In this document: positions 2,540 to 55,098 of the stretch, piece after piece
Numbering within the stretch: the stretch's first letter is position 1
Layout: each line of letters starts with the position of its first letter
Assembly: GCA_004431415.1 (NCBI GenBank)
Contig: QPMI01000097.1
Span: 1 to 64,000, forward strand
DNA length: 64,000 bases
Source: Cyanophora paradoxa CCMP329
Lineage: Eukaryota > Plantae > Glaucophyta
Direction: 5' to 3'
Program-made: the position numbers and the translations under genes
The notes under the pieces: generated by a model
Told to the model about the DNA's origin: nothing
Seen by the model: the letters and a program-made list of their open reading frames with translations, nothing else
Database searches by the model: none

Positions 2540-3012
2540 AGAAATCACAATGGATCACAACGATTGAGCGCGGCGTAGAGGCGATTAAGTAGCGTCGCAG
2601 AGGTCGTCGAGCTTGCCGTTCGATCCGCGATGTCGGCGAGCTCGGCGGTACGAGTCGCGCACTTGTCCACGGCGCCCGCTTGCGCTCCTTGTAGCTCGGT
2701 TCGAGATCTTGAAGAAGTGCTTGATGGCGCGCGGGCTCACGATCCGCGCACGCCCGTACAGCAGGGCGTGAGCGTGCACTCGATGCAGCGATTGATTCCC
2801 GTCCTCTGGCCCTCGATCGCGATCTGGTCGGGAAGCCGAAGGCGCTATGGCGCGAGTAACCTCCACCAGGCGCGCAACCAGCGCCACAGCAGCGCGCAGA
2901 CGGAAGAGGCGATCTTCTGCCAGTCGAGAATCTGGATTCCTTTGTCTGCGGATCGAATTCGATGAGCACCATGCGAAATTGATGACCCCCACATCCACGC
3001 CGAGATCTTCAT
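2540..3012 (-). CDS. RuvC-like Holliday junction resolvase (poxvirus A22 type), frameshifted
   Basis: MKI-LGVDVGVINFA (catalytic D1), DQIAIEGQ (catalytic E), RIVSPRAIKHFF, YKERKRA, KLDDLCDA (C-terminal DD..D). Confidence 0.8.
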
Positions 3013-3263
3013 CCCAGGTCGCAAGAAAATCTGAATGAAGGGGATGGCAGAGCCTGGCGGAAAAATTCATCCGGATGTGCATCGACATTACCGAGATGAG
3101 TTCTTCAGCTCAGACTACAGCCAAAGCGTTCCAGACATTCTGAGCGATTTCGAAAGCTGCATTAGAGAGGGCTGCGCGCTGCTAGTATCGACTACGAGAC
3201 CTGGAGCTAGGTATCGACTACGAGACCTGGAGCACCCTCGAAAAATCTGAATGAAGGGGTAAA

Positions 3264-4276
3264 ATGGCCAAGGACCCCAAGAAGCCGAAGAAGCCGAAGG
3301 CGCCAAGCCCCAGCCCGCCCAGCCCGCAGCGCAGCGCCCGCGCCCCGCCCCCGCCGGCCAGGCCACCGCACGGCTCGGGCACGGCCCCGCCGCCGGCGCC
3401 AGCTGCGCCATGGCATGACAGAGACGGCCAGCAGCTCACGCCCGAGCAGGTCAACGCCTTCCTCGACAACTCGAAGACGGAGCATCGAGCGCATGGCCTG
3501 CCTGCCCGAGCTCAAGTGGTTCGACGTGAACACCGTCAAGTCCGACGCCACGGTCGTCTGCGTCGGCAAGCGGCGCACGGGCAAGTCCTTCTTCCTCCGC
3601 GATCTCATGTTCAACCTCTCCGGCACCTTCCCGGGGTATCGTGATCAGCCAGACCGATCGCCTGAACGGCTACTGGAAGCAGTACATCCCGCAGCGCTTC
3701 ATCTGGCCCAAGTACAACCCGGCGTGCTCTTCCATTTATTCAGGAGGCAGCAGCGATCATGCAGCACAACAAGTCCGAAGACGTGCTCGCGGAAAGAGGA
3801 TCCGTCGACCCGCGATTTTCGTGCTGCTCGACGACGTGATTTCCGACGCTCGCTGCGTACGACGAGGCCTCAACGAGCTCTTCGTGCGGGCGCCACTACA
3901 AAATCATGACCCTTATCACGACGCAGTATGCCAAGGCATCAATCCCGTCCTGCGCTCCAATACTGATCTGGCTGTCATTTTCAAGTGCTCGCAGGCGATG
4001 CAGCGCGAGGCCCTCGCAAAGGAGTGGGCGACATCATCTCCCAGCGCGCCTTCTACTACCTGCTCGATAAGTACACGCAGGATAACCACTGCCTTATCAT
4101 CGATTCTTCCAACAACTCTACGAACCCTCTGGACGTTTTGTACGTCTACAAGGCGAGGAGCCGCCCCCTTCCGCATCGGATCCAAGGAGTACTGGAGGCG
4201 AAACCGTCAACGGAGAAAATCTCGTGGGTCCGGACGACGGCACGGTGGACAAGACGCTCCTCGGCATGATAGATAA
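3264..4276 (+). CDS. A32-like virion DNA packaging ATPase (FtsK-HerA superfamily), frameshifted
   Basis: Walker A VCVGKRRTGKSFFL, Walker B IFVLLDDVI, A32 motifs GRHYKI..LITTQYAKGINPVLRSNTD, C-terminal FRIGSKEYW. Confidence 0.9.
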
Positions 4277-4700: not shown

Positions 4701-5036
4701 ATGTCAAAGGTGCTCCTAGGCTCTCCAGGCTATCGTGCAGTACGCCCTCGGCCTGGCATCCGGCTCCCTCATCGACGCCGCCTTCTCTCGCACGAAGGCG
4801 AAAACAGGCGGGCCACGCAGCCGAGCTCGCCGCGCAAGTCGCCGTCAACGCCTCTCCTCGGCCTGCTCTCGAAATACGTGCTCACCCTCAAGTTCTTCGA
4901 CGACGACCCACCGGCGGAATTATGTTCATCCTCGATTCACACACGGCAGACGAACATGCTAATCAAGGCTACCAGCGCCAGCTTCGGAATCAAGCAGGCG
5001 CTCGAGCGGAAGGCCGCCGCGATCACTAAAGAGTAG
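4701..5036 (+). CDS. Small viral membrane protein (frameshifted)
   Basis: Hydrophobic segments VQYALGLASGSLIDAAF, LLGLLSKYVLTLKFFDDDP, GGIMFIL; upstream motif present. Confidence 0.5.
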   Translation: MSKVLLGSPGYRAVRPRPGIRLPHRRRLLSHEGENRRATQPSSPRKSPSTPLLGLLSKYVLTLKFFDDDPPAELCSSSIHTRQTNMLIKATSASFGIKQALERKAAAITKE

Positions 5037-5843
5037 CTAAAGAGTAGAAAGAAATGCCAGTCGTGTACTCGCAGATCCTGTTCCAAATCGAATCTAACTC
5101 CGAGAGTTTCTGCCTGCTCTTGAGCAAGGGAAAAAGGGAGGTGCTGGGCAAATCCAGCAGCACGAAAATCTGCCTGAAAACGTAATTGTAGTTGAGCATG
5201 TTCTTCCTGCCCTGCGACTTGAACATGCTGAAGGGACCTCCACCAGGCGAACATCTCCTGCACCCGTCCATGTCCTCCGCGCTCATCGGAGGCGGCGCTC
5301 GCCCGTGATGCGCCACTTGATCTGCGCCCAGCGCTCGATGTACTTCTGCTGCTTCAGAGCCCGGAGAACTTGCGGATATTGTCTTTGCTCCACTCCTTCC
5401 CGCCATGCGCCTCGCAATAGCTGCCAGCACGTCCTCGGTACCGGAGAATCCTCCAGGCAGTGCTGCTTAAGTCGCTCGGAAACGTGGTACTTGCGCAGGT
5501 AGTTGCTGTGGAGCTCGCTGACAGCCAGGGTTGATGGTCCGGATAATAAAGATCCAGACCAGACCGCAGCCTTGGCAAACCAGATCCCCATCCAGGTGAA
5601 CACCAACGAGGCGGTAGAGCTGCAATTTCCGCAGGGACAGCGCTTCGCCTTGGGGCCTTGGGTGCGGCGGTTGCGCTTGCGGGGCGCTCTCCGGCCCCGA
5701 GTAGGAGTTGGCGATGGCGCGGCGGCGGCGGGTACGTGCCGGAGTGTCGAAGTCTGGGTCCCCTCGTCGTGAAGGATGGCGCCGTAGCGCTGGATCTGCT
5801 CGAAGTTTCGGAGGAGGAGATCGATTTCGTTAGAGTCTGCCAT
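5030..5843 (-). CDS. Viral late transcription factor 3 (VLTF3, poxvirus A2L family), frameshifted
   Basis: Zn finger CPCGNC...DGDLVCQGCGLV; SNYLRKYHVSERLKQ; LRALKQQKYIERWAQIKWRITG; RKNMLNYNYVFRQIFVLL; FPLLKSRQKLSELDSIWNRICE. Confidence 0.9.
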
Positions 5844-6067: not shown

Positions 6068-6880
6068 ATGCTCAACCTCATCGCGAGGGCGTGGCAGCAA
6101 ACAGGCAAGCCCGGCACCGAACCCTCACCTCCGCATGGACGCCTCCGGCCGCTCCCGGGTAGAGACGCACATCGTGGTGGCAACATCAACGACAAGGTGC
6201 TGGCGCCCGACAAGACGTGGTTCCAGAAGTGCTGGACGCGGCGCCCGTGAGGAAACTGAACGGGAGGATCGGCCGCAGCGCGAGTCGAATTTCATGATCA
6301 CCATCCAGACCAACTACAAGCCGCGGAGCAGGGAGAGGCTCCAAGGTGCAGGACGCGTTTCACAGGGGCTGGAGGCCCTCTTCTACGACGACAGGCAGCT
6401 GGCGCGGTGCATAAAGATGGGGTGTACCCCGACAAGGCGAACCCCAAGGGCTTCGATTTCAAGTCCGACCAGTACGACACGCACGTGGAGAAGGGCAACG
6501 CGAACATCGGCATCGAGTACGGCCGCGGTCGGGCGGCTCCACGCGCACATCCTGCTCACGCTGGTGCACTACTCGCGCGTGCAATTCGACGGCAAGAAGG
6601 CGTCGGATTTCCTCATCAAGTTCATGCAAACGGAGGGCAGGCGGCCTGCCGAATTTCTACAAGGACGACTGGTTCGGGAGGAGTACCAGAAGACGCGGTG
6701 CGGCCGATACGGAGAAAGGACGCCCTCGCATGCAGTGGACGGGCAAGAGACGGCTACAGGAAGCGAGAAACCGCCAGGCAGATGCACGTAGACGTAAAAT
6801 TGCTGCCGCAGAGCAACCTTAAGGATCTGCTGCAGCTGTACATTACGAAGACGGTAGAGGCCCTCGAGACGGCGCTGTAA
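6068..6880 (+). CDS. HUH-superfamily (rolling-circle Rep-like) endonuclease, frameshifted
   Basis: Motif I SNFMITIQTN, motif II RLHAHILLTLVH, motif III LQLYITK (YxxK). Confidence 0.85.
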
Positions 6881-13700: not shown

Positions 13701-15777
13701 CGGGTGGCCAAGGAGGCCTTCAGCGCAGAGACCCTCTTCTCCGCGATGGGTACGGCGAACAACGACGGCATGTCTTTCGGGGCAGCCGATTTATTTCAGG
13801 GGCGGGCATCGACTTGGTGGGCGCCGGGCTGGGGGTACGGGCTCGCGGGCCATGCGGCGGCGGGCGCGGCGGCGGCCGGCCTTGGGCTGGCGACGGCGGG
13901 CGGCCTGCTCTCGGCCTACCAGGCGCTCTCGCAGGGCAAGATAGGGAGGCCGAGTTCTTCGATACGTTCCGCGATCAGATGATCATGACGGTCGGCTCTT
14001 TTGGCCTTCAGACGGGCATGTCGTCCGCCCTGAGCGCCCTCACGAAAATGAGGATCGGCACGGTGGGCGGACTTGGCCTGTCCATCCTCGCGGGCGCCAT
14101 CGCGCAGGTGATCGTGGATATCATCAACGGGCGCAGCGCGGAAGAAATCGTGAAGAACTTTTTCAAGTACCCCGTCGACTGGGCGACCGACACCATACAG
14201 TTCATCGCGGAGCTCTCGCAACAGATCTACGACTGGGGCGTCGAGACGTGGGGCGACGAGGCGAGCCAGCTGCGCAACCGAATTAATCGGCTGGAGGGCG
14301 AGCTGGGCTCCGGATTTTTGGGTGTGTACGACCCTCGGAGGCGCGCGAAATGGCCTCGCTCTTGGCCCAGGAGCTGCGGTTAAACGAAATCAAGGAGCCG
14401 AAGGAGCTGCAGGCCTTCATTCGCGCGCTCGACAACAGCATCAACGATTACCGTACCCCCAAGGACCAGAAGACCCTGCTCGAAATCGATCGCGCGACCG
14501 TGCTCTTCCTCTCCCAGCTCACCGTTAAAATGCAGGAGGGCTTCGGGTCGACTTCGCTCGCCCTGAGTCGACTTATGCGCGACCTGAAGCAGATGATAAA
14601 GGAGGAGACCAAGGGGCGGAAGCGCGTCTTAATTGCCGTCTACCAGGAGGGCCTCAACAGGATCAATCACATCGAAGCCCTAAGGCGCGAATTCGGCTCG
14701 GCCATCCGTCACTCGGGCGTCTCGTCGAACGGAGGGCGCAGGTGGCCCGCCTGGCGGACGCCAACTCGCGCCTCGAGATTCCCGGGACCTTCCGCATGCA
14801 GGATTGGTGGAGGCCGAGGCCTTCAGGAATTACGGGCCTTCATAGACAACGGATCAATTCGCAGAGCCCCAAGGCAAACTGGCTGGTACCCAAGGCCTAC
14901 GTCGATAAATTGGTTGACAGGCCTGCAGCACCATACACCAAGAAGATCGCCAAAGGCATCGAGTACTGGGCGCCCGAGCCAGGCCAGCCCGTGTTTGCAT
15001 CGCAGAACTACGAGTGGCACATGGCGCCGGGGCGAGCCAGGCCGTGAGCACCGTGGGCGTTGCCGTGCCGCAGCTGGCGACGGTGGCACACACGGGGGCG
15101 TATGCAGATCTCAGCGGGAGGCCGACGATACCCGTGATACCAACAACGTGGGCGTGGGATAGCATCACGGGGAAGCCGAGTACGTATCCCCACGCAGACC
15201 ACCAGCACACCATCTCTCAGATCAGCGACTGGACGGCCCCGGACTTGACGAACATCTCCGTGGATTGGGACAACGTAACGGGCAAGCCACTTACCTTCCC
15301 CCCCTCTACACACAGTCACAATGTGTACTGGATAATGTCATCGACCGACCCACTTCCTTCCCACCCTCTACGCACAGTCACACAGAGTACTCGCTCACCA
15401 GCCACGGGCACAGAAACGTGAACATGGATGCGTACATAACGCACGGCACGTCCTTCCACTCCTACGCTGCGTACACGGAGTTTAACATCAATTCAACATA
15501 CACGGTGACGTTCAACATTACATTCGGACAGGCGTACGACACTGGAGGCGGACTGGGGACCCCAGCAAACCCAACGCCGGTTATTAACGTAACCCCCTCG
15601 TTCGACATCAATCCCGGCGGCAGCACGGATGTCGATTTCTACGGGGCCAACGTCACGGCGGTGAGTCACACTGGCTTTACAGTTAAAGTGAGATTCCAAC
15701 CCAGAATGACGGTCACGCCCACCCAAATTGTCCAGCTTTTTATTCATTGGACCGCGATCGGCAAGCTGCTTATGTAA
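10731..15777 (+). CDS. Giant frameshifted virion protein: coiled-coil/hydrophobic (tape-measure-like) body, phage tail-fibre repeats and C-terminal gp53/H-lectin-like domain; may be two genes
   Basis: Successive overlapping ORFs with long E/K/R coiled coils (11.7-13.4 kb) and Gly/Ala hydrophobic helices (13.8-14.1 kb). Repeats LATVAHTGAYADLSGRPTIP, WDSITGKPSTYPHADHQH, WDNVTGKPLTFPPSTHSH. C-terminus ...TAVSHTGFTVKV...FIHWTAIG. Confidence 0.6.
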
Positions 15778-15801
15778 TCGATTTTCTGATGCAATCCAAA
15801 A

Positions 15802-16840
15802 ATGTCGGTCGCTGTCCCTCTATTTACCTATGCTGCCAGCGTGAATCACAAGGGCGATCACACGATTAAGGAGACCACCCTCGGAAACCAGGCCACCGAG
15901 GCCCCTACAACGCCACGGCCGTCCCCTTTTCCGAGGCCGACCTCGTCCGCGTCGGCGAGCTGCGCTGCGACAAGATGCGCACGCGGAGGGCGGGTCGGCC
16001 GTGCCGGGGCGCGTGAGGACGCAGAGGCTCACCGTCACGAACGGGGCCTGGGACGGGAGCGGGTACACCACGAATCAGGTGACCTTTAATGGGACTGTGA
16101 ACGGGGAGGGGAATGCGGCTCTGTATGTGCAAGGAGGCGGAGCAAACGTGGTGGGGGGCTTAGGGTGAGCGGGGCTTCAAACTTGGCGGCATCGTTACAT
16201 TGGACGATAAGCTGCAAATTACCGGAACGTCACCGTACATAAATGGCGGTGGTTCAGGCGTAGCTATAAAGTACAACGAAAACGATAGACTCCTCTGTGG
16301 GACTCTTGGCGTTGGTGTTACAGGTACTCTATTTACCTCGGCAATCGAAGGCCCTACTAATGGCCTAAGCATAGCAAACACTTCAATCGTTGATAGCGGA
16401 AGCGTCAGCTCTGGTCTATCCTTGAGAAACAACGGCACCGAACGACTGCTGTGCGGAACCGTCGGCGTTGGCATCACGGGTCGGCTCATCGTCTCGACGC
16501 TCACGGGCGATGGAAACCGAGCCGTTTATTCGGATGCTCAAGGATACCTGACAAACTCGTCGAGCGATAGCCGCCTGAAAGAAAATGTCGCGAGCATGTC
16601 GGGCATTCTCCCTCTTCTGCTGCAGCTGAATCCCGTGTCGTTCACCTGGAAGAACACATCCTCGGGGGTTCGAAAACGGATTACGGTCTCATCGCACAGG
16701 AAGTCCAAGGCGTCTTCCCGAGTCTCGTTTTCGAGAACGCGGATGGATTTCTCGGGGTAAACTACGACAGGCTCATTTCCCTGTCGTTGAAGGCAATTCA
16801 GGAACTTTCACAAGAAGTTCAAACTCTCAAAGACCAGTAG
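15802..16840 (+). CDS. Tail-fibre-like protein with C-terminal intramolecular chaperone (peptidase S74) domain, frameshifted
   Basis: SSDSRLKENV...LLQLNPVSFTWK..DYGLIAQEVQGVFPSLV...GVNYDRLISLSLKAIQELSQEV; internal repeat NDRLLCGTLGVGVTG / TERLLCGTVGVGITG. Confidence 0.85.
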
Positions 16841-16877
16841 CGGCACTGGCGAGCTGATCTGGAACAACTAGGAATAA

Positions 16878-19011
16878 CTACACCGCGAGTATCACAATTC
16901 GACCGTTGCCACCGTCGCTGAAAGACGAGCCACCGTTGCCGCCCCTACCAATGCCTGCTGCGTAGTGAGCGTCTCCGCTATTTCCTGCCACCTGGCCGGA
17001 CCCAGGATACACCGTAGCATCCGTCAAGTTTCCTATGTAGCTCGAGCCACCGCCACCTCCAAACATTCTTGCTATTGGTTCTCTGACACTCCGCTCCTGC
17101 TGGACCCAGAGCCTCCACCGAAGTAACCACCACCACCACCACCACCGAACCTGTAGCCGCTTGAATCAGGCCCAGTCTCTCCACCTTGGCGCAAAGTTCC
17201 CGGGTTGCTGGGCCTGGCCCCTGAGGCCACAACACCGGCTCCGCCAGCGGTTTGGGTGCCTCCTTGAGCCGGTATCTCTCCGGTTACTCCAACCAACCCA
17301 GCCGCACCACCGGTCAACCCCCGCCTACTCCCCGCCGCCATTCGAATCACATGTACCCCCACCTCCGGCCCCTGCAACAACCAAGTCGGTCCCTGCAACG
17401 CGCTGAATTGCAGAACGACCACCACCGGCGCCGTTTTTGTACTCCGGATCGACGCTATGGCTCCAGCCCCTTCCACCACCTCCGTAGACGGTAGCAGTGG
17501 CAGTCCCCGATACACCCTTTGGGCCGCCGCATCCAACAACAAGGATGAGCGTCTCCCCGAGGACACAGCCAATGTACCAACTACGCAAGCACCCGCGCCT
17601 CCACGGACCCCCGTACCTGCGCGTTCTCCGCCTCCACCCCGGCCGCCCATACGATGACACGCACAGCCACAGTCCCCGTTGGTACTACGAAAGTCTGGTC
17701 GGCCCCGGTGTAGGAGAATGTACCCAAAACAGGAGCGTTTGCAGTTGTTGCACTGGCAGACGAGGACTGAGGGCCTTCCTCGCCGATCTGGTTGACGCCC
17801 TTGATGGTGTAAGTGTAAGTGGTTCCGTAAACGGTCGTTGTGTCCGAAAAGGGCTGCTCGTGTCGCTGGCAAGGAACACGCCACCCCTGTAGATGTTGTA
17901 GGAGACGGTGACGCCCGTCACCGGCACCGACCACTCGAGCACAACAGGCTGTGCTGCCCCCGCCGCGGGGTTGCAGTGAGCCCAGTGGGCGCCCCGGGTC
18001 CGTGGTGACGTACGCCGCAATACTCTTCGGCCCCTCCCCTCCCGTGTTCGTCGCGGAGATCTGGTACTCGTACCCTGTACCCCAGACGGTGGTCGTGTCG
18101 CTGTAGGAGTTGGTCGCGGAGTCTGTGAGGTAGGCCCCGTCTCTGTAAATCTTGTATCCCGTCGCTCCCGTGGACGCAGTCCAGCTGAGGCTGACAGGCT
18201 GCTGCTGGTCGTTGGGTGCTGATGCCGTCACGTTCGTGGGGGCGTTTGGCATAGTCCAGACCAGGAGCGGATCGGACTTGTCGTATTCGACACCGCCCAC
18301 GATGCCGGCCACCTGGTAAGAGTATTCCGTGCCCCACGTAAGAGCAGTGCTATCGTCAATGTACGAGGTAGACAGGGCACTGCTCGCAAATCCGATTGGC
18401 GTACCGTTCCTGTAAATTCGAATCGAGTCCGCGCCCTCCATGGCCACCCAGTTGATTGTGACGACTATGGCGGGTTTCGGGAAGCCCGAAGACGCGGGGC
18501 CGCCCCCGGCAATAAAATCGCCGTAGGTCTGGGCCGTGGCGGTCGTGAGCGTGGTGTAGGCTTCGATCTGCGGGCTGAAGCCGCCTATGCCTTGGAAGAG
18601 AATGTAATTGCTCATGGCACCCTCGTGGGTGTAGAGAAGCGACTGTGCGTAGGTTGTGGGCGGGGCTTTGCCATCAGAGCCCGTGCTGCTGCTGCCCTGT
18701 TCGCGAACCGCCGCCACGCGGTAGAGTCGCTGGGCCCCCAAACTAAAGGGAGAGTCCGTGTAGGTGACGGTTGGCGCATTCACCGTGGCCACGAGATCCC
18801 AGGGGCCGTTGATGCTGGTCGCCCTGTACACCTTGTACTTGACGGCGTTGGTGACCGCGACCCAGTTCAGCTGAAAGCCGTACGTACTGTTCCCGTTGTT
18901 GAGCACGGAGCCCGATCGCACCTGGGGCCTGCCCACAGTCAGCGAGATCGGCTCCACGCCATACTGCGGAGCCTGCACCACCTGCTTTTTCACGAATACG
19001 AAGCGGGGCAT
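16878..19011 (-). CDS. Fibronectin type III repeat protein with C-terminal glycine-rich domain (putative adhesin), frameshifted
   Basis: About four FN3-like units (LNWVAV..YKVYR; VSLSWTASTGATGYKIYRDG..SYSDTT..YEYQISATN.GGEGPKS), then TFSYTGADQTFVVPTG..GGGGG domain ending GGNGRIVIL. Confidence 0.8.
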
Positions 19012-19049
19012 TTTCCTCTACGATCCGAAAAAATATCTGCCCGGGGTAA

Positions 19050-19728
19050 ATGACTTCCAACTGGTACCAGACCCTCAGCGGCTCACTTGACGTTGGCAAC
19101 AACACCAAGGATTTCGCACGCATACCCTCCGGCAGTTACGTCGACGTCTTTCTGCAGAATCCCGTCGTGATTCAGGTCGTTCAGAACGCCTACGCCACGC
19201 CCAAGATTTATTCCTACCAGCTCTTCTTCGACCCTCTGAGCCTCAGCGCAGAGGTTATCGAGCTGCTGCACGAATCAGGACTCGTGAAAAAGGTGGCACC
19301 TGCCACGGCCACTGCCAACGTCTTGCGCTGTCTCGAGGTCAAGTTCAGGGAGACGGGGTACGGCCCCACCGTGAACCGGTACCCCAGTTCTTCGAATCTT
19401 CCGGGTACGGGAACTTACCAGATGAGGGGTACGCTCAAGGGCGACGTGCTCTTCACGAAATTCAATCCAAGTCCCGCGACCCTGGGGCCCTCTACACGGG
19501 CGGCAACCCACGCGGCTCGACTCTACCCCGCTTCCCCTTCACCTTTTTCAGGTTCCAGGTCTTCCCCTCTCCTACGCCGCCGACCAGCCCCACTTCAGCA
19601 CGGGCGCCAGCCTCTGCGCGGAGCTGCGTGAGTGCTCGATTTCCTACGCGTACGGCACCGACGCTGACTCTGTGCCTGGGGCCCGCGTCATGAACATCGG
19701 TGGCGACATCACCCTCTTTCACGGATAA
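19050..19728 (+). CDS. Viral hypothetical protein, paralog A
   Basis: ORF 19050-19631 plus frameshifted tail; shares QNPV/SGL.KK/LE.KF/LFTKF motifs with the next gene. Confidence 0.65.
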
Positions 19729-19751
19729 TCTTTCTCATTTGAGGTCGCAAA

Positions 19752-20563
19752 ATGCCGACCACCTCGGCCACCATCGTGAAGACCGTGTCTGCCGGCTCGA
19801 TCGTCCCCGATTTCTACGGCAACGCTGGGAACGTGGCCAACGCAGGGACGGACAAGGTGGAGTGGGACGGAAACTACGCCACCCCGCTCACCGTGAGGGT
19901 CCAGAATCCCGTCATGTTGCGCGTCACCTCCAACGATTTCGAGAATCCCGCCTCCTGCTCCGTGTACGTGTACTTTGACATCGACTCGGGCGTGAGCGCG
20001 GATGAGGCGGAGGCGCTCTGGCTCTCGGGCCTCCTGAAAAGATAGAGCCCTCTGTGCCTGATCGGCCCGCCATTCGCGTGCTCGAACTCAAGTTCACCGC
20101 TAACACCGCCCTCACTCGCAAATTCGGGAATGGTGCGAATCCGAACATCAAAACGCATTTAGATGGCGCCCTCATCGATGCCACACACAAGACCACGCAG
20201 GCCGTTCCCTTTGAGATGTACAACCTCTGGAAGATGACCGCAAAGGAGATGATGACGAATGCCACCACGGGCGGCGCCTCGGGTACCGATTATTCATACG
20301 GCGCCTCGAATCCCCGTACCCAGGTCTGGCCCCGGCTCCTCTTCACGAAATTCACTTTCAAATTGTACAACAACATCGCCGGAATGCCTACCTCTGGAAT
20401 GGTCGTGGGCTCTACCCTCATGGCCGAACTAATTGAGGCAGAGGCGGACTACACGACTGCGACTACCAACTCGACAGCGCCAGGCGCCGGAGCCGAAGTT
20501 TACGTGGCCTGGGAAACGGTCGGTCGCGAGTACGACACCAAGATTCACACCACTAGCGTCTAG
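19752..20563 (+). CDS. Viral hypothetical protein, paralog B (one frameshift near 20040)
   Basis: ORFs 19752-20045 and 20054-20563 join at the AAAA run near 20037-20040; motif similarity to paralog A. Confidence 0.7.
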
Positions 20564-20917
20564 ACTGGCTAAGCTGCATTAGCACCTGTGTCGCCTCCAT
20601 CATCTCCCGAATCTCCTCGCTCTTCTCCTGTAAATTGGCGTACCCCCTCCTCTTCTTGCGAATCTCCGACATTGATGCCCAGCGCAGGTTCTCCCTCCTG
20701 TAGTCCAGCGGGTTGCCGTTGATGTGTTCCACGTAGCGTCCACGTGGCGACTTCCCGAGGATCAGCTGGGAGAGGTAGTGCTTGCGCCCTCCAAACGTCT
20801 TGCTCACCCTGTCCCTGTCCACTCTCCAGGGAAACTCCAAGGCACTCGGGGTACGTCCGAGTTGACCAGGACGTTGTAGGCGACGTCTTGCGAGTCGGTG
20901 CACCGGAGCAGGGCCAT
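20553..20917 (-). CDS. HNH (HNH_3-type) domain protein, probably catalytically degenerate
   Basis: HYLSQLILG...YVEHINGNPLDYRRENLRWASMSEI; ATG at 20917 with TTTTTCT 14 nt upstream; one frameshift near 20845. Confidence 0.75.
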
Positions 20918-20941
20918 TTTGCCCTAGGTTCAGAAAAACCT

Positions 20942-21030
20942 GGGACTTGGGACTTGGGACTTGGACTTGGGACTTGGGACTTGGGACTTGGGACTTGGGA
21001 CTTGGGACTTGGGACTTGGACTTGGGACTT
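20942..21030 (+). repeat. (GGGACTT)13 tandem array (two units lack one G)
   Basis: Read directly from the sequence. Confidence 0.97.
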
Positions 21031-21479
21031 GGGAAGAGTTGAAACCCAGGTCCCGGCCCAGACTTTCTCCAGGATCAGAAATTTGTCAGACAAGTCAGGT
21101 GAGTTTTTCTACCGACTTTTTTACTCCTACCACTCCTCATACTCTTTTTTACTCGTAGTCTTTTTTACTCGTAGTCTTTTTTACTCGTATCCCATCTCGT
21201 ACCCTCCTTCTCTCGACATCTCACACGAAAACTCCTACCCCTCTTCACATCCGTTTTCGGTTGCATACTCTCGTGAGCTTTCATGTCCAGTATCATGCTA
21301 CAAGTCGTACACCAGTTCAGACTCTACCTCGCTTGAAATCTCACCTGGAATGTCACCAGAAACGTCATATGCAGATTTCCGTACCCCTCTACATGTCTGC
21401 CCGGTGGTTAGGGACTTGGCGCGGCAAACTCTCAGATCCAGAGAGATTCTGGGCCCAGACCCTGAGTCTAACTCTTCCC

Positions 21480-21528
21480 AAGTCCCAAGTCCCAAGTCCC
21501 AAGTCCCAAGTCCCAAGTCCCAAGTCCC
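21480..21528 (-). repeat. (AAGTCCC)7 array, inverted relative to 20942-21030
   Basis: Read directly; flanking AACTCTTCCC...AGG also mirrors the first array. Confidence 0.97.
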
Positions 21529-21602
21529 AGGATCGCGCCAAGTCGTAACTGAATAGTCGGCCAATTTTTACAAGTATGTACAATGGAATGACGCAATACT
21601 AT

Positions 21603-22671
21603 TTACAGCATCTCAAAGTCAGAGTCATCGTCATCGGAAACCAACTCAATGAGGCCCTCGGGCGCCGACTTAAGGGGAATGCGGGGAAGGGACTGCGCTG
21701 CCTGCACCAAGTCCTGCCGCTCGCGCTCGCGCTGCGCCGCCAAGGCCGCTGCCGCCTCTGCCTCGCGCTGCTGCTGAGCCTCGATGCGCGCCTTGAGCTC
21801 GGCCGCCTCCTTCTGCTTGCGCTCGGCGATCCGCGCCTTGTTGATCTGGTACTGGACAAGGCGCTCGTGGCGCCGCTTGCGCTCCAACTCCTTGCGGAGC
21901 TCGTTGCAGAGGACGCGCTTCTCAATGGTCTTGACGTGCTGAGTCAGGCGCTCGCTGTAGTGTGACGTCACGCGAGAACGGGCAATGCCGGCGCCGAGCT
22001 TCAAGTCCTTCTCGTGTGCCTTGGCGGGGTCCTTGACGCGCTCGGAGTTGTCGGTGAATGACGTAGTCTCCATGAACTTCTTCTTGACGATTGACTTGGT
22101 CTTGATAATGCGGCGCTTGCGAGTCGGGTTTTCGTTGTCGCCTTCAGAGTCAGAAGACGACTCAGAGTCGTATGGAATCGGCACGTCAAAGTCGATGAAG
22201 TCGTTGATGTCAGACTCGACGTCAGAGGCCTCGGACTTGGCGTCATCGGCGGGCTCGGGGGCGGGCTCGGCGACGGGCTGAGGGGCAGATGACGACGATG
22301 ACGGAGGGGGTAATTCGTGAAGACTTGAGGGGGTAGGCCCAGGCGAGCGTCTCGGCAGCAGACTCGGCGAAAAGCTTGGGGTCGCCCCAGCCGTTGGCGG
22401 TCTTGACCCAGCCGGGGACGGGGGGCACGTCGACGGGGGGCTCGGGCTTGGGTTGCTTGGACTTGGATTTCTTGGCCTTGGACGTGAAGGCGGACTTGGG
22501 GAGAAGTTGCACTTCGGGGCCAGTGGCGCGTAAGATGGCATAATTGTAGATGTACCCCAGAGCGTCGGCGCGCTGCTCCATCTCAGGGGTAGCCCCTTGA
22601 GTGCCACCGGAGTTAGCCCACGTTGCTTGGACAAAGGCGAAGTCCTCGGCAAGCTCAGCGGGAATCGACAT
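21603..22671 (-). CDS. Viral hypothetical protein: acidic region, coiled coil, C-terminal SIM-like motif (one frameshift near 22320)
   Basis: MSIPAELAEDFAF... joined to ...SDVESDINDFIDFD...LIELVSDDDDSDFEML; GATTTCT 15 nt upstream of the ATG. Confidence 0.65.
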
Positions 22672-23009
22672 CTGCGCAAAGGGAAAAGAAATCAGCAAAG
22701 GCAAAACGTGAGGTGACTGTGAGGGCGGACTTGTGAAAATTCGGAGAGGCGGGGTTTCCTTGGGCTGAGAGAAGGCGGCGAACCCGTTTCAAGAGTGAGC
22801 CAAAATGGCGGCGGACCGCGGTTTTGTGGGCGATTTTTTTCGCGGTCTAGTTCGCAACGGAAAACGTTGCCAACTGGCCTGAAAAAAGCCAAATTTAGCG
22901 TTGGACCGAAGGCAGAAAAAGGGAGCCGGCCTGACGGAAATCGCCCGAGTGCGTCCGCCGAAGGTCGAGTCTCGGGCCGGGGTACACCCTCAGGGGCCCC
23001 CCTGGCCCC

Positions 23010-23479
23010 TCACCCTGGTAGTGCCCTCTCAAAGGGATTTTCGAAGCCGTACAATTCTTGGTAAGTCTCGTAATCCGGGCTGTACCCCCTCACAATCTGC
23101 GGGAGCCCCATTGAAAGCCTCCGTCTATCCTCTCTCAATTCCCTGCGGAAAAGTCTACGGTCTTCTCGAGCTTCGCGTGTCACGCCAGCTGGGCGTGGTC
23201 TATGATTGTTAGGGTTGTCGTAGCCTGGTCCCACCAGCCTCACGAAATTTTCGCGTATGGCCTCGGGAGGCTCTGGAAACGGCTCGTCGCGTGGAACTCA
23301 ATCCATTCATTGAATCGACGCGGATATTGACGGATGACTTCAAGCACGCCCTGTGTGTTGGGCTCTGGTGTTACGTCGGGGATGTCATGTCCCGTGAGGT
23401 GCCAACGCCAGAACTCGCGCAACCTCTCGAATGCCATATTCAACTCAAAGGGAAAATCGTAATAGAGATTGCCTGACAT
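23010..23479 (-). CDS. Last viral gene, hypothetical (frameshift near 23245)
   Basis: MSGNLYYDFPFELNMAFERLREFWRWH... then RLVGPGYDNP...YETYQELYGFENPF; AAATTTTCG upstream. Confidence 0.55.
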
Positions 23480-23539
23480 TTTCTCCCCGTCCGAAAATTT
23501 CCCCGCTTTTGGGTCCAGACTCTGATTCCAACTCTTCCC

Positions 23540-23588
23540 AAGTCCCAAGTCCCAAGTCCCAAGTCCCAAGTCCCAAGTCCCAAGTCCC
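23540..23588 (-). repeat. (AAGTCCC)7 array, direct copy of 21480-21528
   Basis: Read directly; preceded by a similar GGG.CCAGAC.CTGA.TC.AACTCTTCCC flank. Confidence 0.97.
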
Positions 23589-23967
23589 AGGTCACATTTT
23601 TCTCCCATTTTGACTCGAGATTCTGACCAAGTCCAAATCCGGGCCCGGGATTCGAACCCTCGTTTTCGATCGATTTCACGCGTGAAAACGGCACTTTTCG
23701 GCCTTTTCCGATTTTTCCTTTCTCGCGATCGCATTAATGTCCCCGATCTCGAAATCGCGATCGAAAAGGGTCGCGATCGGGAGAAAATCGCGATCGCCAG
23801 GGTCGTGATCGCCGCGATCGCCAGCCTCGGAGGGGGTACCCCCACAGCTGTTGCGGCGGTTATAAGAACCTCCGCAATCCAAGCGTCACTTCCGAGTCTC
23901 GAGCTCTCGGAGTTGACTTTTCGCGTTTGGCCCATTGATGGCCCTCCTATATAGGGCCCGCGGCCGT

Positions 23968-24374
23968 AGGGCCCGTAGGGGCTCCCGCCACCGCCCCGAG
24001 ACGAACCCCGCCGCCACACTGTGACAAGACGCAATGCAGCACCACGCCGTGCGGGCACGTACGCGTGTCACAGTGTAGCTCTACTAGGCGCGCGCCGGCT
24101 AGCTCGAGCTCGAGTGTCCGCGCGCGGGGACTGCGGGAGCTCGAGGCGCATTACTCTCAGAGTCTCCTTAGGCCTAGGGGGCTTCGAATTCGCCGCGGCG
24201 CAGGCCTGAGGGCCCGGCCCGGCCGGCCGCGGCCAGCCGCTGAGCTCGCTGGTGGGCTGGGCCCGGCCCGCCGCGCGGCCACGGCGGCCCCAGCCAGCTG
24301 CAGTGTACATTCCCACACTTGTAGCCCGGACCTGCGTTTTGAGTACGTACGTATACGTACGCGTGTCCAAATGC
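23968..24374 (-). repeat. Dispersed host repeat family A (conserved terminus ...GTGTCCAAATGC), copy abutting the viral element
   Basis: Matches copies at 28064-28340, 41311-41620, 46919-47183, 48545-48856 and 54833-55030. Confidence 0.9.
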
Positions 24375-24709
24375 GCAGCGCTAGCCTCCGGAGCCTCGCG
24401 GAGGCTCAGCGGCTTGAAGCTAGCGCGCTAGCTTGACTGTGACTTGAAGCTTGAAGCTTGACGGCTTGCAGCTTGAAGTTAGCTCGCGCTTGAAGTTATA
24501 GCTATAGCTAGCGCTGCTCGCGCACGCAGTGCTGCGCGCACTCCGAGAACCGCTTTTCGAGAGAAGTGCTGGCGCGAGCAGCTGCAGCCTCGTCCTTACC
24601 GTCGACGGCGCTCACGTTCGTAGAGAAAGCGCTCACGCCGCCATCTCACCAGCTCGCAGTCGAGGATACGTGTACTGCACGTACTTGCCAGACGCGTACA
24701 GCTGTGTCG

Positions 24710-27667
24710 ATGAGCCGCGTACGCATCCGCGGGGTAGCGCTTGCGTTGCTCCCAACGTTCCTAGTCGTGGGACTCCTCGTGACACATGCGTGGCTGAGCG
24801 TCACAAGTTTCAAGGACTGGTCACTCACATTCGATGAAACCGGCCAGGTGCGTGGCTGTGCGGGGTCTCCCCTCTGTCCTCCTCTAATTCCGTACAACAG
24901 TTGACGGCGGGCATTAGCTACTTGCAGACCAGAGGGGACTTCCGTGTCAACTCGGAGCAAGGGCTTCTTCCGTCTGTCCTTATGGCTCTGCCAGTCTACA
25001 TGACCGTCAACTACACTTGGGTTGATCAGATGTCCGAGGACTGGATTTACTCGCAGACGTTCCCCCTTGCGGATCAGTTCTTGTTTCGACAGGGAAATGA
25101 TTTTAGGATTATGGCGTTCAGAGCTCGTCTTGCCATGTTGATTCAACCGCTGCTTCTGATCGTCTGGGTAAGAATCTTCTGTGCCGGTTATGTCTGAAAA
25201 AGATATCGATCCGATCAGTACTTGCTACAGATATACAAGTGGTCTGCAGAACTCGGAGGGACTTCAGCTGGGATCCTGTCAGCCTCTATGGCAGCTTTCT
25301 CTCCCGCTCTGCTTGCACATGGAGCGCTGTGTACCTCGGACATGGCTGTCACACTGTGGATCACAGTAGCCTTGAAATGTCTCTGGCGATCATTTCATTC
25401 AATAAACCTTCGTAGCTTCCTTGTGGTGCACAAGCTTTCTCCTTCCTGTGGCATATTATTATTCATATTTCTCCAGAGCTGTGTTGCTCTTGCAGCTGCA
25501 TTTCTATCGAAAATGTCTGCTCTTGTTCTGGGCCCTGTCACGATTTGTCTTGTGGTGGTGCGCGTGCTGGCTGGCACCCCGCTTGCGATCGAGCTCTGCT
25601 TCCTTGAGAGACGCTTCGTGAAAACCAGGTGGATTGCTGGCCGGCCTGGGGCTTGACACTGTGGCTAACATTCGTTGCAGGGCACGAATGTTTTTGTCGC
25701 TTATATGCCTGCTTCTGGCAAAAGTGGCCGTCATGGCGTTTTTGTTTTGGGCGGCATACCTCTTCAAGTATGACGCAATTATGGAGAAATCTCCGGATGG
25801 CCGTGGATCTTTTCCAGTAGATTGGGACACGATGTACAACTCGACTTTTCCTCCACTGGCGGTCGCAACGGATTTCGCACGGAAGTACAAGTGAGTGATT
25901 GTCCTGATTTTTGATGCACTGGGACGCGATCTTGCAACCAGACTTCTTCCCGAGGCGTTTCTCTATGACTTCATTCACAACATGTACATGGTGAGCAACC
26001 GGCGAGCGTTCTTCAGGGGAAAGTACTCGAGAACAGGTGACAGTATTTTTCATCGTCGTGCGAAGTGTGTGGAACCAGAAAAATGGCTCACTGTGCCATG
26101 TCAGGGTTCCCTGAATACTTCATTTTCTGCCTAGTCACCAAAACCCCGATTGCCCTTCTGGCTGTGCTGTCTCTGGCTGCGATCTGGTCGTTGTGGGGCT
26201 GCGGTAGACGAGTTCTACAGGTGCCTGCAGCCACACATATGTTTCTTCATTTCAGTCTTTCTCATTGTACCCGGCTTGAAGCGGCCGTCCATGGCTTCCA
26301 AGAACATCAGCAACGGGACAAGAGAACGACAAAACAAAACTCCAGAAGCTAAACATGCGGAAGATCAGCCAGTGATTCCGTTGAAAAAGAGCCCAGGCCT
26401 GGAAACGGGGACATCCGTCCTGAGGAAGCGCTTTCTTCAAGGGAGAGAGCCCGTTCCAGAATGTCCGAAAGAATCTGGAACATCTAGAGTCAATCTCAAT
26501 CGAGAGGTAGCTTCCATCTCAGGAGAGTACGCTGATGAAGGAGGCTCCTCATATGCACCACTTCTTGTACACATTACTCTGTTCTGGACTATAGCACTTC
26601 GAAGCAAGGTATCTATCTATCACTGAAGAATTCGGAAGGCTAGCTAGACCGAATCCATTGCACAGGTTACAATTGGCGAGCGATATGTTCTTCCGTCCTA
26701 CCCTGCCATGTATATTGCATGTGGATCGTTCCTCAAGCAACAGCACGGAAGGGAAAGGTCATGGCAAGTGCGAACATGGCTTGCCCTGGTGCTGATGATA
26801 TACACTGCCCACGAGGTACGCATTGCATTTGGTCAGCTTTCTTCCAATCGTCACAGCCCCTGTCTCCAGGTTGCGCGGTACAGACCAAACTACCTTGCAT
26901 ACTTCAACGGGCTCGTGCATCCTGATGAGGCCTGGAAGTATGTTGTGGACTCCTCACTGGATTGGGGTCAGGTGCGCTTCTATATTTTGAGAAGTGGACC
27001 GTGCATGCAGAAATCTGTTTCAGGATTTGCCCCGGCTGCAAACATTCTTCGAGGAGAAACAGCGCGAGGACCCTTCACAGGCTTTCTACATTTCGTACTT
27101 CGGAACAAGCAGCCCAAGGCAGTATGGAATTGAGGCACACGCCCTCCCATCATTCCCAGATCTGTACGCAAGCGATTTTGCGTGCAGTGCACTGCAATCC
27201 TGATGTATGCAAAGGTGGCGACGACAGCTCCCCCTGCGTCTGACCCTGGACTACTACCCAGGCTACTACGCCATATCTGCAACAATGCTCTGGAACTTGT
27301 ACTCCATGTTTGAATTCGTCGGTGAGTGGACTATTCAGCTTGAAGAGTACTATTGGGAGATCTTCCAAGCCGTGGCGCATGGATCACGGTTAGTTGTTCG
27401 GATGGCGTGTTTTCAAGCTGATTCGTCCTGTTTCACTCCGGCCGCAGGGATTCTGAGGTGCTTTTCAAAGCAGACACTGGTGTGTTCAAGCGTTTGTGCT
27501 CCTACCTGCAAACAGAGCGGCCCCCAGACTACACTATTGGTTATTCAATCCTCGTGTACAAGTTGAACAACACGGAGCTTGATCGGTTCTGCTACAAGCG
27601 TGAAAGTCGGCCCTCCTTACCGGACAATCCGAAACTCATCTTCACACCACTGCGACCAATTGCGTGA
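24710..27667 (+). CDS. Multi-exon GT-C membrane glycosyltransferase (ArnT/PMT_2-like)
   Basis: SLTFDE..(intron)..TAGISYLQTRGDFRVNSEQ, FSPALLAHGALCTSD, AFLSKMSA, KTPIALL, PNYLAYFN, DSSLDWGQ, IGYSILVY; short GT-AG introns. Confidence 0.8.
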
Positions 27668-27692
27668 TGTTGAGCTGGGATGATAATGATGA

Positions 27693-28340
27693 GCATTTGG
27701 ACATGAACTAAAAATGTAAGTCCGGGCTACAAGTGTGGGCGTACACTGTGGCCGCCGCGATTATGGGCCCAGCCCAGGTTTTTTTGCAGGATGCCGTGGC
27801 GAATTCTTAGCTTTTGATCTGCGATTACGATTACTAAATTAGCCAGGGCGTCCTTGATCTGCGATTACGATTACTAAGTTAGCCAGGGCGTCCTTGATCT
27901 GCGATTACGATCGTAATTAGGACGTCTTAGCTTTTGATCTGCGATTACGATTACTAAGTTAGCCAGGGCGTCCTTGATCTGCGATTACGATTACTAAGTT
28001 AGCCAGGGCGTCCGACGGTCCTTGATCTGCGATTACGATTACTACGATTACGATTACCCCTCCAGGGCCCGTAGGGGCTCCCACCACCGCCCCGAGACGA
28101 CCCCCGCCGCCACAAGACGCGATGCAGCACCACGCCGCGCATGCGGGCACATGTAGCTCTAGCCGCTGAGCTAGCCAGAGTGTCCGCGGGGAGGCGCATT
28201 TCTCTCCTTAGGGGGCCACTGCGGCCACCCAGGGCCCCGCTGGCCAGTTCGCTGGTGGGCTGGGCCCGCGGCCGTGGCGGCCGCAGTGTACATTCCCACA
28301 CTTGTAGCCCGGACCTGCGTTTTAGTACGTGTCCAAATGC
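27693..28340. mobile_element. Foldback-like composite: two inverted family-A ends enclosing ~40-bp tandem repeats
   Basis: GCATTTGGAC at 27693 and GTCCAAATGC ending at 28340; internal (GATCTGCGATTACGATTACTAAGTTAGCCAGGGCGTCCTT)n at 27816-28056; no TSD seen. Confidence 0.7.
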
Positions 28341-28625
28341 GGATCCATCGCATGCGCAACAGGATTTCGGAGAGGGGGTGATAGCGCCCGGCCCGTGGCT
28401 AGTTTTCACATGAGGGGATCCGGACAGGGACCCGGCAGTTAGTTTTGGGATGTGTTTACCCGAATATATTCAAGACTACCAACTGGATTCCTTAGCTTTC
28501 AAATACAAATCAAAGCCCGGCCCCTCAGCTGCAGAGCGCCAGATCTAAGGCCACTCCAATAGAAGTCCACCCAACTGGTATGGTTCGACAGTTTTAATTG
28601 CTTATATTCTGAATCAACAGCTAAT

Positions 28626-31894: not shown

Positions 31895-32468
31895 CGAAGC
31901 GGATCTCTCACCTCCAGCCTGGCAGGAGCTGCTCTCGCCGCCCCAATTCGATCCGGCGTCCGAAGAGACTCCGGAGCCGATATCGATGCAGAAGAAGGTC
32001 CAGATCAGTGACGCGTCGACGAGCAGAGGCAGAGGGCCGAGGAGAATCGCCTCAAAGCACGAGAGGCGCTGCTGGCACGGTTGGCGACGATCCCTGTTCT
32101 ACTGGATGCCGCTATCACGGACATCGGCTGGAGAAGCGCGCTGTCTGACGAATTCGATAAGCCGTACTTCAAGATTCTCGCGGAGTTCCTCCGATCGGAA
32201 GTGGCAGCAGGAAAGAAAGTTTTCCCGCGACCGTCAGCTCTCATTTTCAATGTGATTCACGCCATCCGCCTTTCATAACTTCGCCCTTAATTTTGATGGC
32301 AGGCGTTAAATCTGTGTCCATTGGAGAAAGTGAAAGTCGTAATAATCGGCCAAGATCCGTGTGCTTCTTTTACTTTGTCATCCCCCTTGTCCTTATTTAC
32401 CACGGTGCATATACCACGGGGATGGCCAAGCGCATGGGCTCTGCTTCTCTGTACCAGCTGGAATCAGT
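31895..32468 (+). pseudogene. Partial, intron-retaining duplicate of the UNG gene
   Basis: Near-identical to 45760-46341 with small indels; stops after [19 protein letters not shown]. Confidence 0.9.
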
Positions 32469-32725
32469 ACCCGAATTGCCGAATTGCACCCGCTGCACCC
32501 ACTGTCTGCACGCGCTGTCTGGCGAATTCTTAGCTTTTGATCTGCGATTACGATTACTAAGTTAGCCAGGGCGTCCTTGATCTGGATTTTAGTACGTGTC
32601 CAAATGCGGATCCCTGACTCAGCTGCTAGAAATGCTCAACTTCAAATCACGTGCGAAGTCCGGGATCCGGCCCCTTGGCTGCAGCGCTCAAATCCAAATC
32701 AAAGCCTGGCCCCTATCTTTCGCTG

Positions 32726-40653: not shown

Positions 40654-41310
40654 AGTGTCAGAAGAGGCGGCAGGCACTGGGTCGTCTCGCGGTGGGGCGC
40701 CCCGACACCCAGCGTTCAGGGCTCGTAATTATAATATAATATTTCAAGTAGCAAGCTGAGACGCCATTGCTGCGCCGGACTGCACGAACGGTGAAGCTCA
40801 GCTCGCACACTGGGGTACAGTCAGCCCTTCGCCGGCACCCGCCTTCCGCGTACCCCTTAACCGTGGCCGCAGCCAGGCGGCTGCCGCTCCTATACGATGG
40901 CTGCTCCGGGACAATGGAGCAGCTGGTGCGTTGTTGCCCCCACATGTACAGGTGTAGTTCACAGATGAAGCTAGCTAGCCGCTAGCTCATGTGTCTACGC
41001 TTCACGCAAACACTAACCCTAGAGAAAGAGTTGCTGCCTCGAAATCGGCCGAAAATTGGCTGAAATCGAACCATGAAATCGCAGAGTCGAATTCGAAGTT
41101 CGCCCCCTCTCACATGAACCCCCACAGGAACGTCTTCCGGAGCCCGGATGAGCTCAGGCATTGACACAGCACGCAGGCTGCCTCCTGTGTAGAAGGGCCT
41201 CGCAGATGGGAGTAGTTGGCCTGTCGCCGTGGGTGAGCTGGGCGTTGTTTTCGGTTTCCAGCACATAGCTATGTTGTCCATATATATATATATGCATTGA
41301 CGGCTATTTC

Positions 41311-41620
41311 GCATTTGGACACGTACTCAAAACGCAGGTCCCGGCTACAAGTGTGGGATGTACACTGCGGCCGCCGCGGCCGCGGGCCCAGCCCACCAGC
41401 GAACTGGCCGGCCGGGCCCTGTGTGGCCCCCTAAGGAGAGTAATGCGCCTCCCCGCGGACACTCTGGCTAGCTAGAGCTACATGTATGTGCCCGCACGGC
41501 GTGGTGCTGCATCGTCTTGTACATGTGGCGGCGGGGGTCGTCTCGGGGCGGTGGCGGGAGCCCCTACGGGCCCTGGCCTCTGGGGGGTCCGACATGGAGT
41601 CAGCCTGCGGTGGGCGCCGG
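41311..41620 (+). repeat. Family A repeat copy
   Basis: Begins GCATTTGGACACGTACTCAAAACGCAGG; reverse complement of 48545-48856. Confidence 0.92.
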
Positions 41621-41622
41621 GG

Positions 41623-46914: not shown

Positions 46915-47349
46915 TGCCCATTTGGACACGTACTCAAAACGCAGGTCCGGGCTACCAAGTGTGGGAATGTACACTGCGGCCTCCGCGGCTGCGGGCCCAG
47001 CCCACCAAGCTCACGCTCGGCCAGCCGGGCCCTGCGTGGCCCCCTAAGGAGAGTAATGCGCCTCCCCACGGACACTCTGGCTAGCTAATATAAATAGCTA
47101 CATGTGCCCGCACGGCGTGGTGCTGCATCGCGTCTTGTGGCGGCGGGGGTCACCTCGGGGCGGTGGCGGGAGCCCCTACGGCCAGGGGCAGGAGGAGCTC
47201 ACCCGCGAGGCCACGTGTGTGGCGCAGAAGGCGTTCGCCATTTCGACAAGGGCAGGACAGGGGGGGGGGGGGGGGGGGCGCGAGGTGGCGAGCGGGGGGG
47301 GGGGGGGGGGGGGCGCGAGGTGGCGAGGGGGGGGGGGGGGGCGGCCTCG

Positions 47350-55030: not shown

Positions 55031-55098
55031 GAGCCAGTATCTGTTTTCCTTCGACAGAAGAACAAGCAATCCCCTCTGCCCCGATATCAAAACTCCCC

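Follow-up and report, generated by a model that had tools for sequence, protein, structure and literature searches.

The window, that is, the whole 64-kb stretch of Cyanophora paradoxa DNA analysed here, falls into two parts. Positions 1 to about 23950 are taken up by a gene-dense, frameshift-rich viral element, after which host genes with short introns follow. Towards the right end of the element lie three arrays of the heptamer GGGACTT (A1, A2 and A3), each accompanied by an inner flank, and A1 and A2 face each other across a unique spacer. Coordinates of the features are collected in Table 1.

Table 1. Features of the provirus and of the adjoining host DNA (positions in the window)
Feature	Position	Strand	Basis or remark
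RuvC-like resolvase, weak	2585..3109	-	Ydc2-catalyt E 0.02, below cut-off; GVDVG motif
A32-type packaging ATPase (presumed), in pieces	3261..4276	+	Walker A GKRRTGKS, Walker B VLLDD
VLTF3, frameshifted	5026..5507	-	Pfam PF04947 E 1.7e-8, above cut-off
HUH endonuclease, mriyavirus-type, frameshifted	6135..6880	+	motifs I-III in two frames
Gene X, frameshifted here (intact relatives ~260 aa)	19752..20563	+	EukProt relatives
HNH_3-domain gene, frameshifted here (intact relatives 121 aa)	20553..20918	-	~20 bp outside A1
Array A1: CCT + 13 GGGACTT units	20939..21030	G-strand on +	sequence, Tandem Repeats Finder
Inner flank of A1, begins GGGAAGAGTT, ends CAAGTC	21031..21096	+	related to A2 and A3 flanks
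Unique 313-bp spacer between A1 and A2 flanks	21097..21409		sequence
Inner flank of A2	21410..21479	-	holds 12-bp palindrome TCTGGGCCCAGA at 21448-21459
Array A2, mirror of A1: CCT + 7 units	21480..21531	G-strand on -
Gene Y, between A2 and A3, frameshifted here (intact relatives ~356 aa)	21603..22671	-
Third copy A3: array CCT + 7 units at 23540-23591, plus inner flank	23465..23591	-
High-copy terminal segment; inferred right end ~23954 (...CCTATATAG)	23592..23954		contig mapping
~290-bp host repeat	23968-24348, 28057-28341, 41310-41622, 46919-47181, 48553-48857, 54833-55031; partial 27693-27776

Results

Gene content of the viral element

The HUH endonuclease carries motifs I (NFMIT), II (RLHAHI) and III (YITK), all of which are kept in its relatives (9 matches). 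Its profile gave a 99.9% match to the HUH protein of a gamadvirus-like IMG/VR contig, L002, and no sequence match in the PDB. When an HUH alignment was used to scan for related loci, one distant locus was returned, again L002, and scans with the HUH frame, the gene X alignment and the ATPase frame returned no relative. In 20.5 kb of L002, only HUH, VLTF3 (tblastn E 6e-17) and one stretch of the FN3 region matched at E < 0.001. Walker A and Walker B of the ATPase lie in separate frames, for which Pfam offered only AAA_25 (E 0.01), and we take the enzyme to be of the A32 type from these motifs. No DNA polymerase was detected among the viral frames scanned with Pfam in the 24-kb part of the element. 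A sequence-only reading of this DNA had named both HUH and RuvC as encoded; the former is confirmed by its three motifs, whereas the RuvC-like frame is weak. According to the available text of PMC11253617, the combination of HUH, VLTF3, A32-type ATPase and RuvC-like resolvase is part of the Mriyaviricetes core set. The element is mriyavirus-like and, as judged from the 24 kb of it that the window holds, likely belongs to this class.

In the region 14918-19017, fibre-like genes encode Peptidase_S74 and (weak) H-lectin domains, and an FN3-repeat gene runs in the opposite orientation. Most viral genes in 1-23950 are broken by frameshifts, the breaks differ between the EukProt copies, and intact genes are present in some of those copies; many of the frameshifts may be long-read errors.

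Three genes surround the arrays. Gene X has a tandem paralogue at 19050-19631 (38% over 73 aa), and relatives of this pair were met also on one Logan and one ENA contig. A structure atlas gave for protein X a weak, sub-threshold lead to a CRESS-type single jelly-roll capsid-like fold, the protein model being poor (pLDDT 39). The HNH protein, for which the PDB held no sequence match, has Tyr at the position where HNH_3 proteins usually carry Asn, and is devoid of the usual downstream Asn, in all three subfamily representatives; the positions of these Asn residues are those that we assume for the motif. Because of both changes, it may bind DNA without cutting it. Protein Y matched no family, no atlas entry and no PDB or BFVD fold at E ≤ 0.001. 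Its model consists of a confident 60-residue N-terminal domain, an acidic linker and a 110-residue helix, and the N-terminal domain varies strongly between copies.

Copies in the host genome

Near-identical relatives of the three genes were present in EukProt, which supplied 12 of the 14 clusters matched by gene X, all 28 of those matched by gene Y (55 members) and 3 for the HNH gene (13 members). All EukProt members of the clusters examined, 36 of the 55 in the case of gene Y, were Cyanophora paradoxa accessions, which points to this glaucophyte as the probable host. Gene Y is named on 54 contigs and, except for one split gene, only once on each. Of 25 named contigs, 23 have it within two gene numbers of gene X, and for 12 of the 13 named HNH genes a neighbouring number belongs to a Y gene. 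Because Y adjoins X and HNH in this manner, the order X, HNH, (A1-A2), Y is, by gene numbering, common to many copies, the arrays themselves being invisible in protein records. As matches to gene Y were about twice as many as those to gene X, we considered that Y might lie inside an inverted terminal repeat; this was rejected because Y occurs once per contig on 54 contigs.

At the DNA level, the view beyond this copy is limited to six letters of the A3 end, and to none of A1 or A2. In 14 DNA runs from a single organism, one of which may have been the source of the window, 82-86% of the words sampled from 17500-27400 were present. The corresponding fraction in six presumed-RNA runs was 0.36-0.39, a value which says nothing on expression of the viral part; the spliced host gene and the host repeat account for about 0.25 of these words, and one presumed-RNA run gave no cover at 23600-23873.

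Three arrays with a common inner flank

Two arrays, (GGGACTT)13 and its mirror, had been described in the sequence-only reading, together with an imperfectly mirrored flank of about 60 bp. Both arrays are present, and the flanks bear out the mirroring, as 54 of 75 columns are identical between the inner flanks of A1 and A2, a score reached by none of 500 shuffles; the arrays, however, number three, A3 having been overlooked. Both Tandem Repeats Finder and a pattern search place A3 in the same orientation as A2. Eleven units of A1 are 7 nt long and two are 6 nt. Common to all three copies are the start at CCT and a related flank of about 65 bp located 3' of the G-strand, and the opening of this flank, GGGAAGAGTT, is seen beside each array. 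The flanks of A2 and A3 are identical in 43 of 80 columns (no shuffle of 500 was as good), and those of A1 and A3 show a weak likeness (44 of 81 columns, reached by 13 of 500 shuffles). A segment of 20 letters aligns across the three flanks without gaps. A flank profile revealed no fourth copy across the 64-kb window.

The outer edge of the copies is sharp in every case (CCTGGG...CCCAGG) and similarity fades inwards. The arrays are pure and sharply bounded and the flanks differ by 25-45%; the outer flanks are unalike, except for a short AGAAAAA near A1 and A3. An 11-bp inverted pair, GACTTGGCGCG / CGCGCCAAGTC, brackets the A2 block (21411-21423 and 21534-21544). The motif GTTnRANNC occurs in all three inner flanks and is one letter off the B-box consensus in the form in which we assume it.

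All arrays are found at gene borders, A2 being 72 bp behind the stop of gene Y and A1 about 20 bp before the start of the HNH gene, and neither array nor flank was found at the other gene borders of the 24-kb viral part. A two-unit pattern matched 24 times in the window, against a shuffle mean of 0.4. No array was found in the 40 kb of host DNA within the window, where one isolated match with two mismatches was met. These observations support the assignment of the arrays to the HUH-encoding virus, and not to a scattered host microsatellite. The expected G-quadruplex pattern (G3-N1-7) is indeed fitted by all three arrays, but also by 5 further sites in the first 25 kb, and the G4Hunter-type score of the GGGACTT unit is 1.14, as compared with 1.5 for TTAGGG.

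Spacer and folding of the arms

The previously noted spacer of about 320 bp with iterations proved to be 313 bp long. At 21143-21189 it contains 2.9 copies of a 16-bp unit, and it has four TTTTACTC iterons (21119, 21147, 21163 and 21179), which read as A-runs on the sense strand of gene Y. Its core (21100-21259) contains 58% AT, as against 40% for the viral part, and 75% pyrimidine on the plus strand. The AT value of 58% was reached by 3 of 1173 windows, all three overlapping the spacer core; nowhere else is the 24-kb viral part richer in AT.

When folded as DNA, the arms of A1 and A2 gave 91-95 pairs and -119 to -124 kcal/mol, a strength that any such inverted repeat would be expected to show. 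The flanks alone folded no better than shuffles (z 1.31, -0.06 and -0.43), and in a consensus fold of the flanks the covariation term was only -0.33. Rfam gave no match in 21031-24600, and no sigma-70 or intrinsic-terminator site was predicted in the spacer by models which are not meant for eukaryotes.

Right end of the provirus and adjoining host DNA

Contigs of three DNA runs and one presumed-RNA run were mapped on 23600-27690. Host DNA had a depth of 75, 76 and 112 in the three DNA runs, and a contig at 23741-23887 reached a depth of 3341 in the first of them, about 45-fold; although depth is no copy number, this ratio agrees with the presence of gene Y on 54 contigs. Among the contigs listed, each of the three DNA runs has a single-copy contig that agrees over 29 letters up to 23954 and diverges beyond, and an 8-kb single-copy contig of one run matches as far as 23953. 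Since this is the pattern of an element end with many flanks in a unitig graph, we infer that the right end of the provirus lies at about 23954. A variant contig seen in two of the four runs contained the outermost letters of A3, CCCAGG, together with an outer flank related to that of A3. The distance to the inferred right end is 363 bp from A3, 2.4 kb from A2 and 3.0 kb from A1; the arrays are accordingly subterminal and do not form the virus-host junction.

Two hairpins, at 23885-23917 and 23940-23958, are predicted for the last 80 bases (z about -2.2; 6 and 3 of 200 shuffles were as good), and the right arm of the second falls past 23954, in the start of the host repeat. They are a candidate HUH nick or termination site, and a right end bearing hairpins is, we presume, loosely like the 3' end of a Helitron. 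A palindrome, CTATATAG, closes the provirus end within this hairpin region (23885-23958). Elsewhere in the terminal segment, near A3, a 13-mer at 23647-23659 (minus strand) is similar to a tRNA T-loop or B-box, by a consensus that we take as given; tRNA calling found no tRNA.

The provirus end abuts one copy of a ~290-bp interspersed host repeat, and at another locus a viral end and part of this repeat share one contig; such a neighbourhood possibly reflects either a target preference or chance. The repeat is devoid of terminal inverted repeats, occurs in six or seven copies in the 40 kb of host DNA, and has high depth in one presumed-RNA run. Beside one of its copies lies a 40-bp unit repeated five times (27814-28013), to which a related single copy was found 4.5 kb away (32520-32588). 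Host DNA also contains a 580-bp duplication (90%; 31895-32468 and 45760-46341), which includes the 5' part of a gene that we take, from its motifs, to be uracil-DNA-glycosylase-like.

Discussion

The head-to-head arrays had been read as an end-to-end fusion of host-type telomeres, or as telomere mimics serving integration in the manner of HHV-6 and Marek's disease virus. A G-rich 7-mer with a GGG tract speaks for this, and so does the order of G-strand and then C-strand, which was given correctly. However, the G-strand of a telomere runs towards the end with the conserved DNA behind it, and in a fusion the shared DNA would lie outside the arrays. Here the conserved flank is located inside, ahead of the G-strand, and the arrays are kept apart by 313 bp of unique DNA, which argues against a fusion, as does the existence of A3. 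Integration through telomeric arrays is contradicted by the virus-host junction, which lies 363 bp from A3, is free of arrays and is followed by spliced host genes. TTAGGG is the unit listed for C. paradoxa in supplement file 2 of PMC3622300 and, in the available part of the same paper, the one made by Glaucocystis telomerase. No TTAGGG dimer occurs in the 64-kb window. The telomere reading is largely refuted and we regard it as extremely improbable. The module is probably a cis element borne by the virus, as opposed to host telomere.

What this element does is a separate problem. Rolling-circle replication with the host polymerase has been inferred for Mriyaviricetes, which have no DNA polymerase of their own and mostly no active primase (PMC11253617, in the text available). 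An HUH replicon of this kind would need a site at which the host starts the second strand, and this need favours an origin-type module; the AT-rich iteron core, the fold-back arms, the HUH gene and the gene order kept around the module in many copies count in the same direction, although what the first three amount to is a resemblance to rolling-circle origins. Our best guess, which we put forward tentatively, is that A1, A2 and A3 could form an origin-type control region for rolling-circle replication. The cruciform that had been proposed for such an origin is unlikely to be extruded from duplex DNA across a spacer of 313 bp. Instead, nicking by the HUH protein, at the hairpins of the element's end or close to them, would displace one strand, on which the arms of A1 and A2 could pair as a stem of about 90 bp or form G-quadruplexes, exposing the AT-rich iteron loop. 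The folded structure might then load host priming and replication proteins, as the single-strand origins of rolling-circle plasmids do, and A3 would offer one more such binding site close to the end. On the other hand, should the nick site lie at the end of the element, the arrays would be 0.4-3 kb away from it and accessory at most. Against an origin it also counts that the minus-strand A-runs downstream of gene Y would suit a transcript-end signal just as well, that the flanks have no special fold, that those of A1 and A3 are weakly alike, and that no GGGACTT-type array is present in the distant, free mriyavirus-like locus L002, of which 20.5 of 32 kb was covered.

The main rival, although in our opinion unlikely, would assign the arrays to transcription, which they could pause or terminate, or they could insulate the terminal genes from silencing by the host. 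The minus-strand GAGTAAAAAA repeats would then act as 3'-end signals, which agrees with the reading of the iterons as A-runs on the sense strand of gene Y, and in any read-through RNA A2 would fold onto A1 into a long double-stranded stem. The placement of the arrays fits this well: all are at gene borders, A3 and A2 bracket gene Y in one orientation, A1 is just upstream of the HNH gene, and the 13-mer near A3 is B-box-like by the presumed consensus. Nevertheless, arrays and flanks are missing from all other gene borders of the 24-kb viral part, and the lack of an Rfam match in 21031-24600 does not favour a role in RNA either. The sharp common outer edge, the similarity fading inwards, the largely unalike outer flanks and the terminal inverted repeats that A1 and A2 form with their flanks could instead be the mark of an old miniature transposon, spanning A1 to A2 and captured by an ancestor of the virus, with A3 as a solo or alternative end and the whole module as a passenger. 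No exact target-site duplication of 2-12 bp was found for either A1/A2 or A1/A3, the window's 40 kb of host DNA contained no copy, and such an origin appears slightly more doubtful than a transcriptional role.

Two further explanations seem quite improbable, and about equally so. One is a joint of virion ends, in which A1 and A2 with their flanks would be inverted terminal repeats and the spacer a packaging or RuvC resolution site, integration taking place at a separate site as with cos and att of temperate phages. Inverted arms around a unique core are consistent with it, and so is the element's coding content, a weak RuvC-like gene and a presumed packaging ATPase; working terminal repeats, however, are usually near-identical, and here the flanks agree to only about 72%, A1 has 13 units against 7 in A2, and A3 is left unexplained. 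In its favour, PMC11253617 mentions, in the text available, direct terminal repeats on several free mriyavirus contigs, and an endogenous relative in Phaeocystis has short tandem repeats at its flanks according to the accessible part of 10.1101/2022.07.28.501842. The other explanation is neutral slippage, that is, expansion of a functionless 7-bp unit in a short segment which was duplicated twice. A four-unit pattern found one locus in IMG/VR, on an unrelated tailed-phage contig (L001), where an array lies beside a portal gene, so the GGGACTT unit can expand elsewhere. This hit is to a nine-unit array at 2997-3062, upstream of the gene, and several other heptamer runs are present on that contig. 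Slippage accounts poorly for the contrast between pure arrays with sharp boundaries and flanks that differ by 25-45%, or for an AT-rich iteron core placed exactly between A1 and A2. The array with its flank gave no match in IMG/VR or in JGI metagenomes, and a degenerate flank pattern none in IMG/VR.

The located end bears on how these viruses integrate. Mriyaviruses are predicted to replicate by the rolling circle and are found integrated, though integration genes are said to be absent (10.64898/2026.06.19.733378, in the part available). It is conceivable, if unlikely, that rolling-circle insertion of a Helitron-like kind, driven by HUH, took a mriyavirus with no known integrase to some 55 sites in a glaucophyte, the end at about 23954 being the nick or termination site and the G-rich panhandle the second-strand origin. 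Were this true, Mriyaviricetes, a class thought closest to the ancestor of giant viruses, would have an origin and an integration end mapped for the first time. With about 55 near-identical copies in a cultured alga, one located end and a cis module, both the question of the origin and that of integration are testable.

The literature consulted on mriyaviruses gives neither an origin nor an integration end. In the main text of PMC11253617 the strings 'telomer' and 'integrat' do not occur, and its available text describes no origin, repeat module or integration site; nothing on such arrays stands in the accessible part of 10.64898/2026.10.09.758095, and PMC10120064 gave no match to the terms sought. 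Our search, whose scope excluded most subscription journals and bioRxiv supplements, found no description of the module or of a provirus end, and the literal GGGACTT repeat led, by titles, only to mouse and human studies. The sequence-only reading knew of no such arrays in this virus group, which agrees with this literature. Endogenous relatives are on record, as Yaravirus-like elements in Phaeocystis (PMC12480563) and as mriyavirus-related regions embedded in a Glaucocystophyceae assembly and also in Pavlovophyceae (10.1101/2025.04.19.649669), and PLVs of Cyanophora are mentioned only for a fibre gene (PMC12220804), as far as the available portions of these papers go.

Comparison with known systems

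The module is similar to single-strand and iteron origins of plasmids in its long imperfect inverted repeat, predicted to fold on a displaced strand, its AT-rich iteron core and the presence of an HUH initiator in the replicon. It differs in belonging to a eukaryotic virus, in arms made mostly of tandem G-rich units and in a third, unpaired arm; the likeness is one of resemblance only. With HHV-6 and Marek's disease virus it shares G-rich tandem arrays near the end of an integrating virus; in those viruses, however, the arrays consist of the host telomere unit and stand at the junction, whereas in the Cyanophora provirus the unit differs from TTAGGG and the junction has no array. Subterminal repeat blocks split by unique DNA in a RuvC-encoding nucleocytovirus are also known from the inverted terminal repeats of poxviruses, but here the unit is 7 bp, blocks in both orientations occur at one end, and there is no sign of a terminal repeat that would include gene Y, which is found once per contig.

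The closest likeness is to Mriyaviricetes (Yaraviridae, 'Gamadviridae' and NCLDV-like dwarf viruses), with which the element shares HUH and VLTF3 and, less certainly, an A32-type ATPase and a weak RuvC-like gene, no DNA polymerase having been seen among the frames scanned in the 24 kb within the window; the capsid gene and the left end lie beyond it. The class is further marked by a double jelly-roll major capsid protein, a helicase, genomes of 35-45 kb, VLTF2, a PDDEXK nuclease and Mriya_48/50/51. Like the endogenous mriyavirus regions reported before, the element is integrated in an algal genome, and it probably belongs to the same glaucophyte family as that of 10.1101/2025.04.19.649669, though the accessible parts of such reports give no repeat unit, end sequence or copy structure. 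Phaglo-G of Phaeocystis is said to be flanked by short tandem repeats, with the unit not stated in the available part of 10.1101/2022.07.28.501842, whereas the Cyanophora arrays lie inside the element, 0.4-3 kb from its end. Endogenous mriyaviruses, including those of a glaucophyte, had thus already been reported; to these, the present case adds a three-part module as candidate origin and a located provirus end, within a family of some 55 copies.
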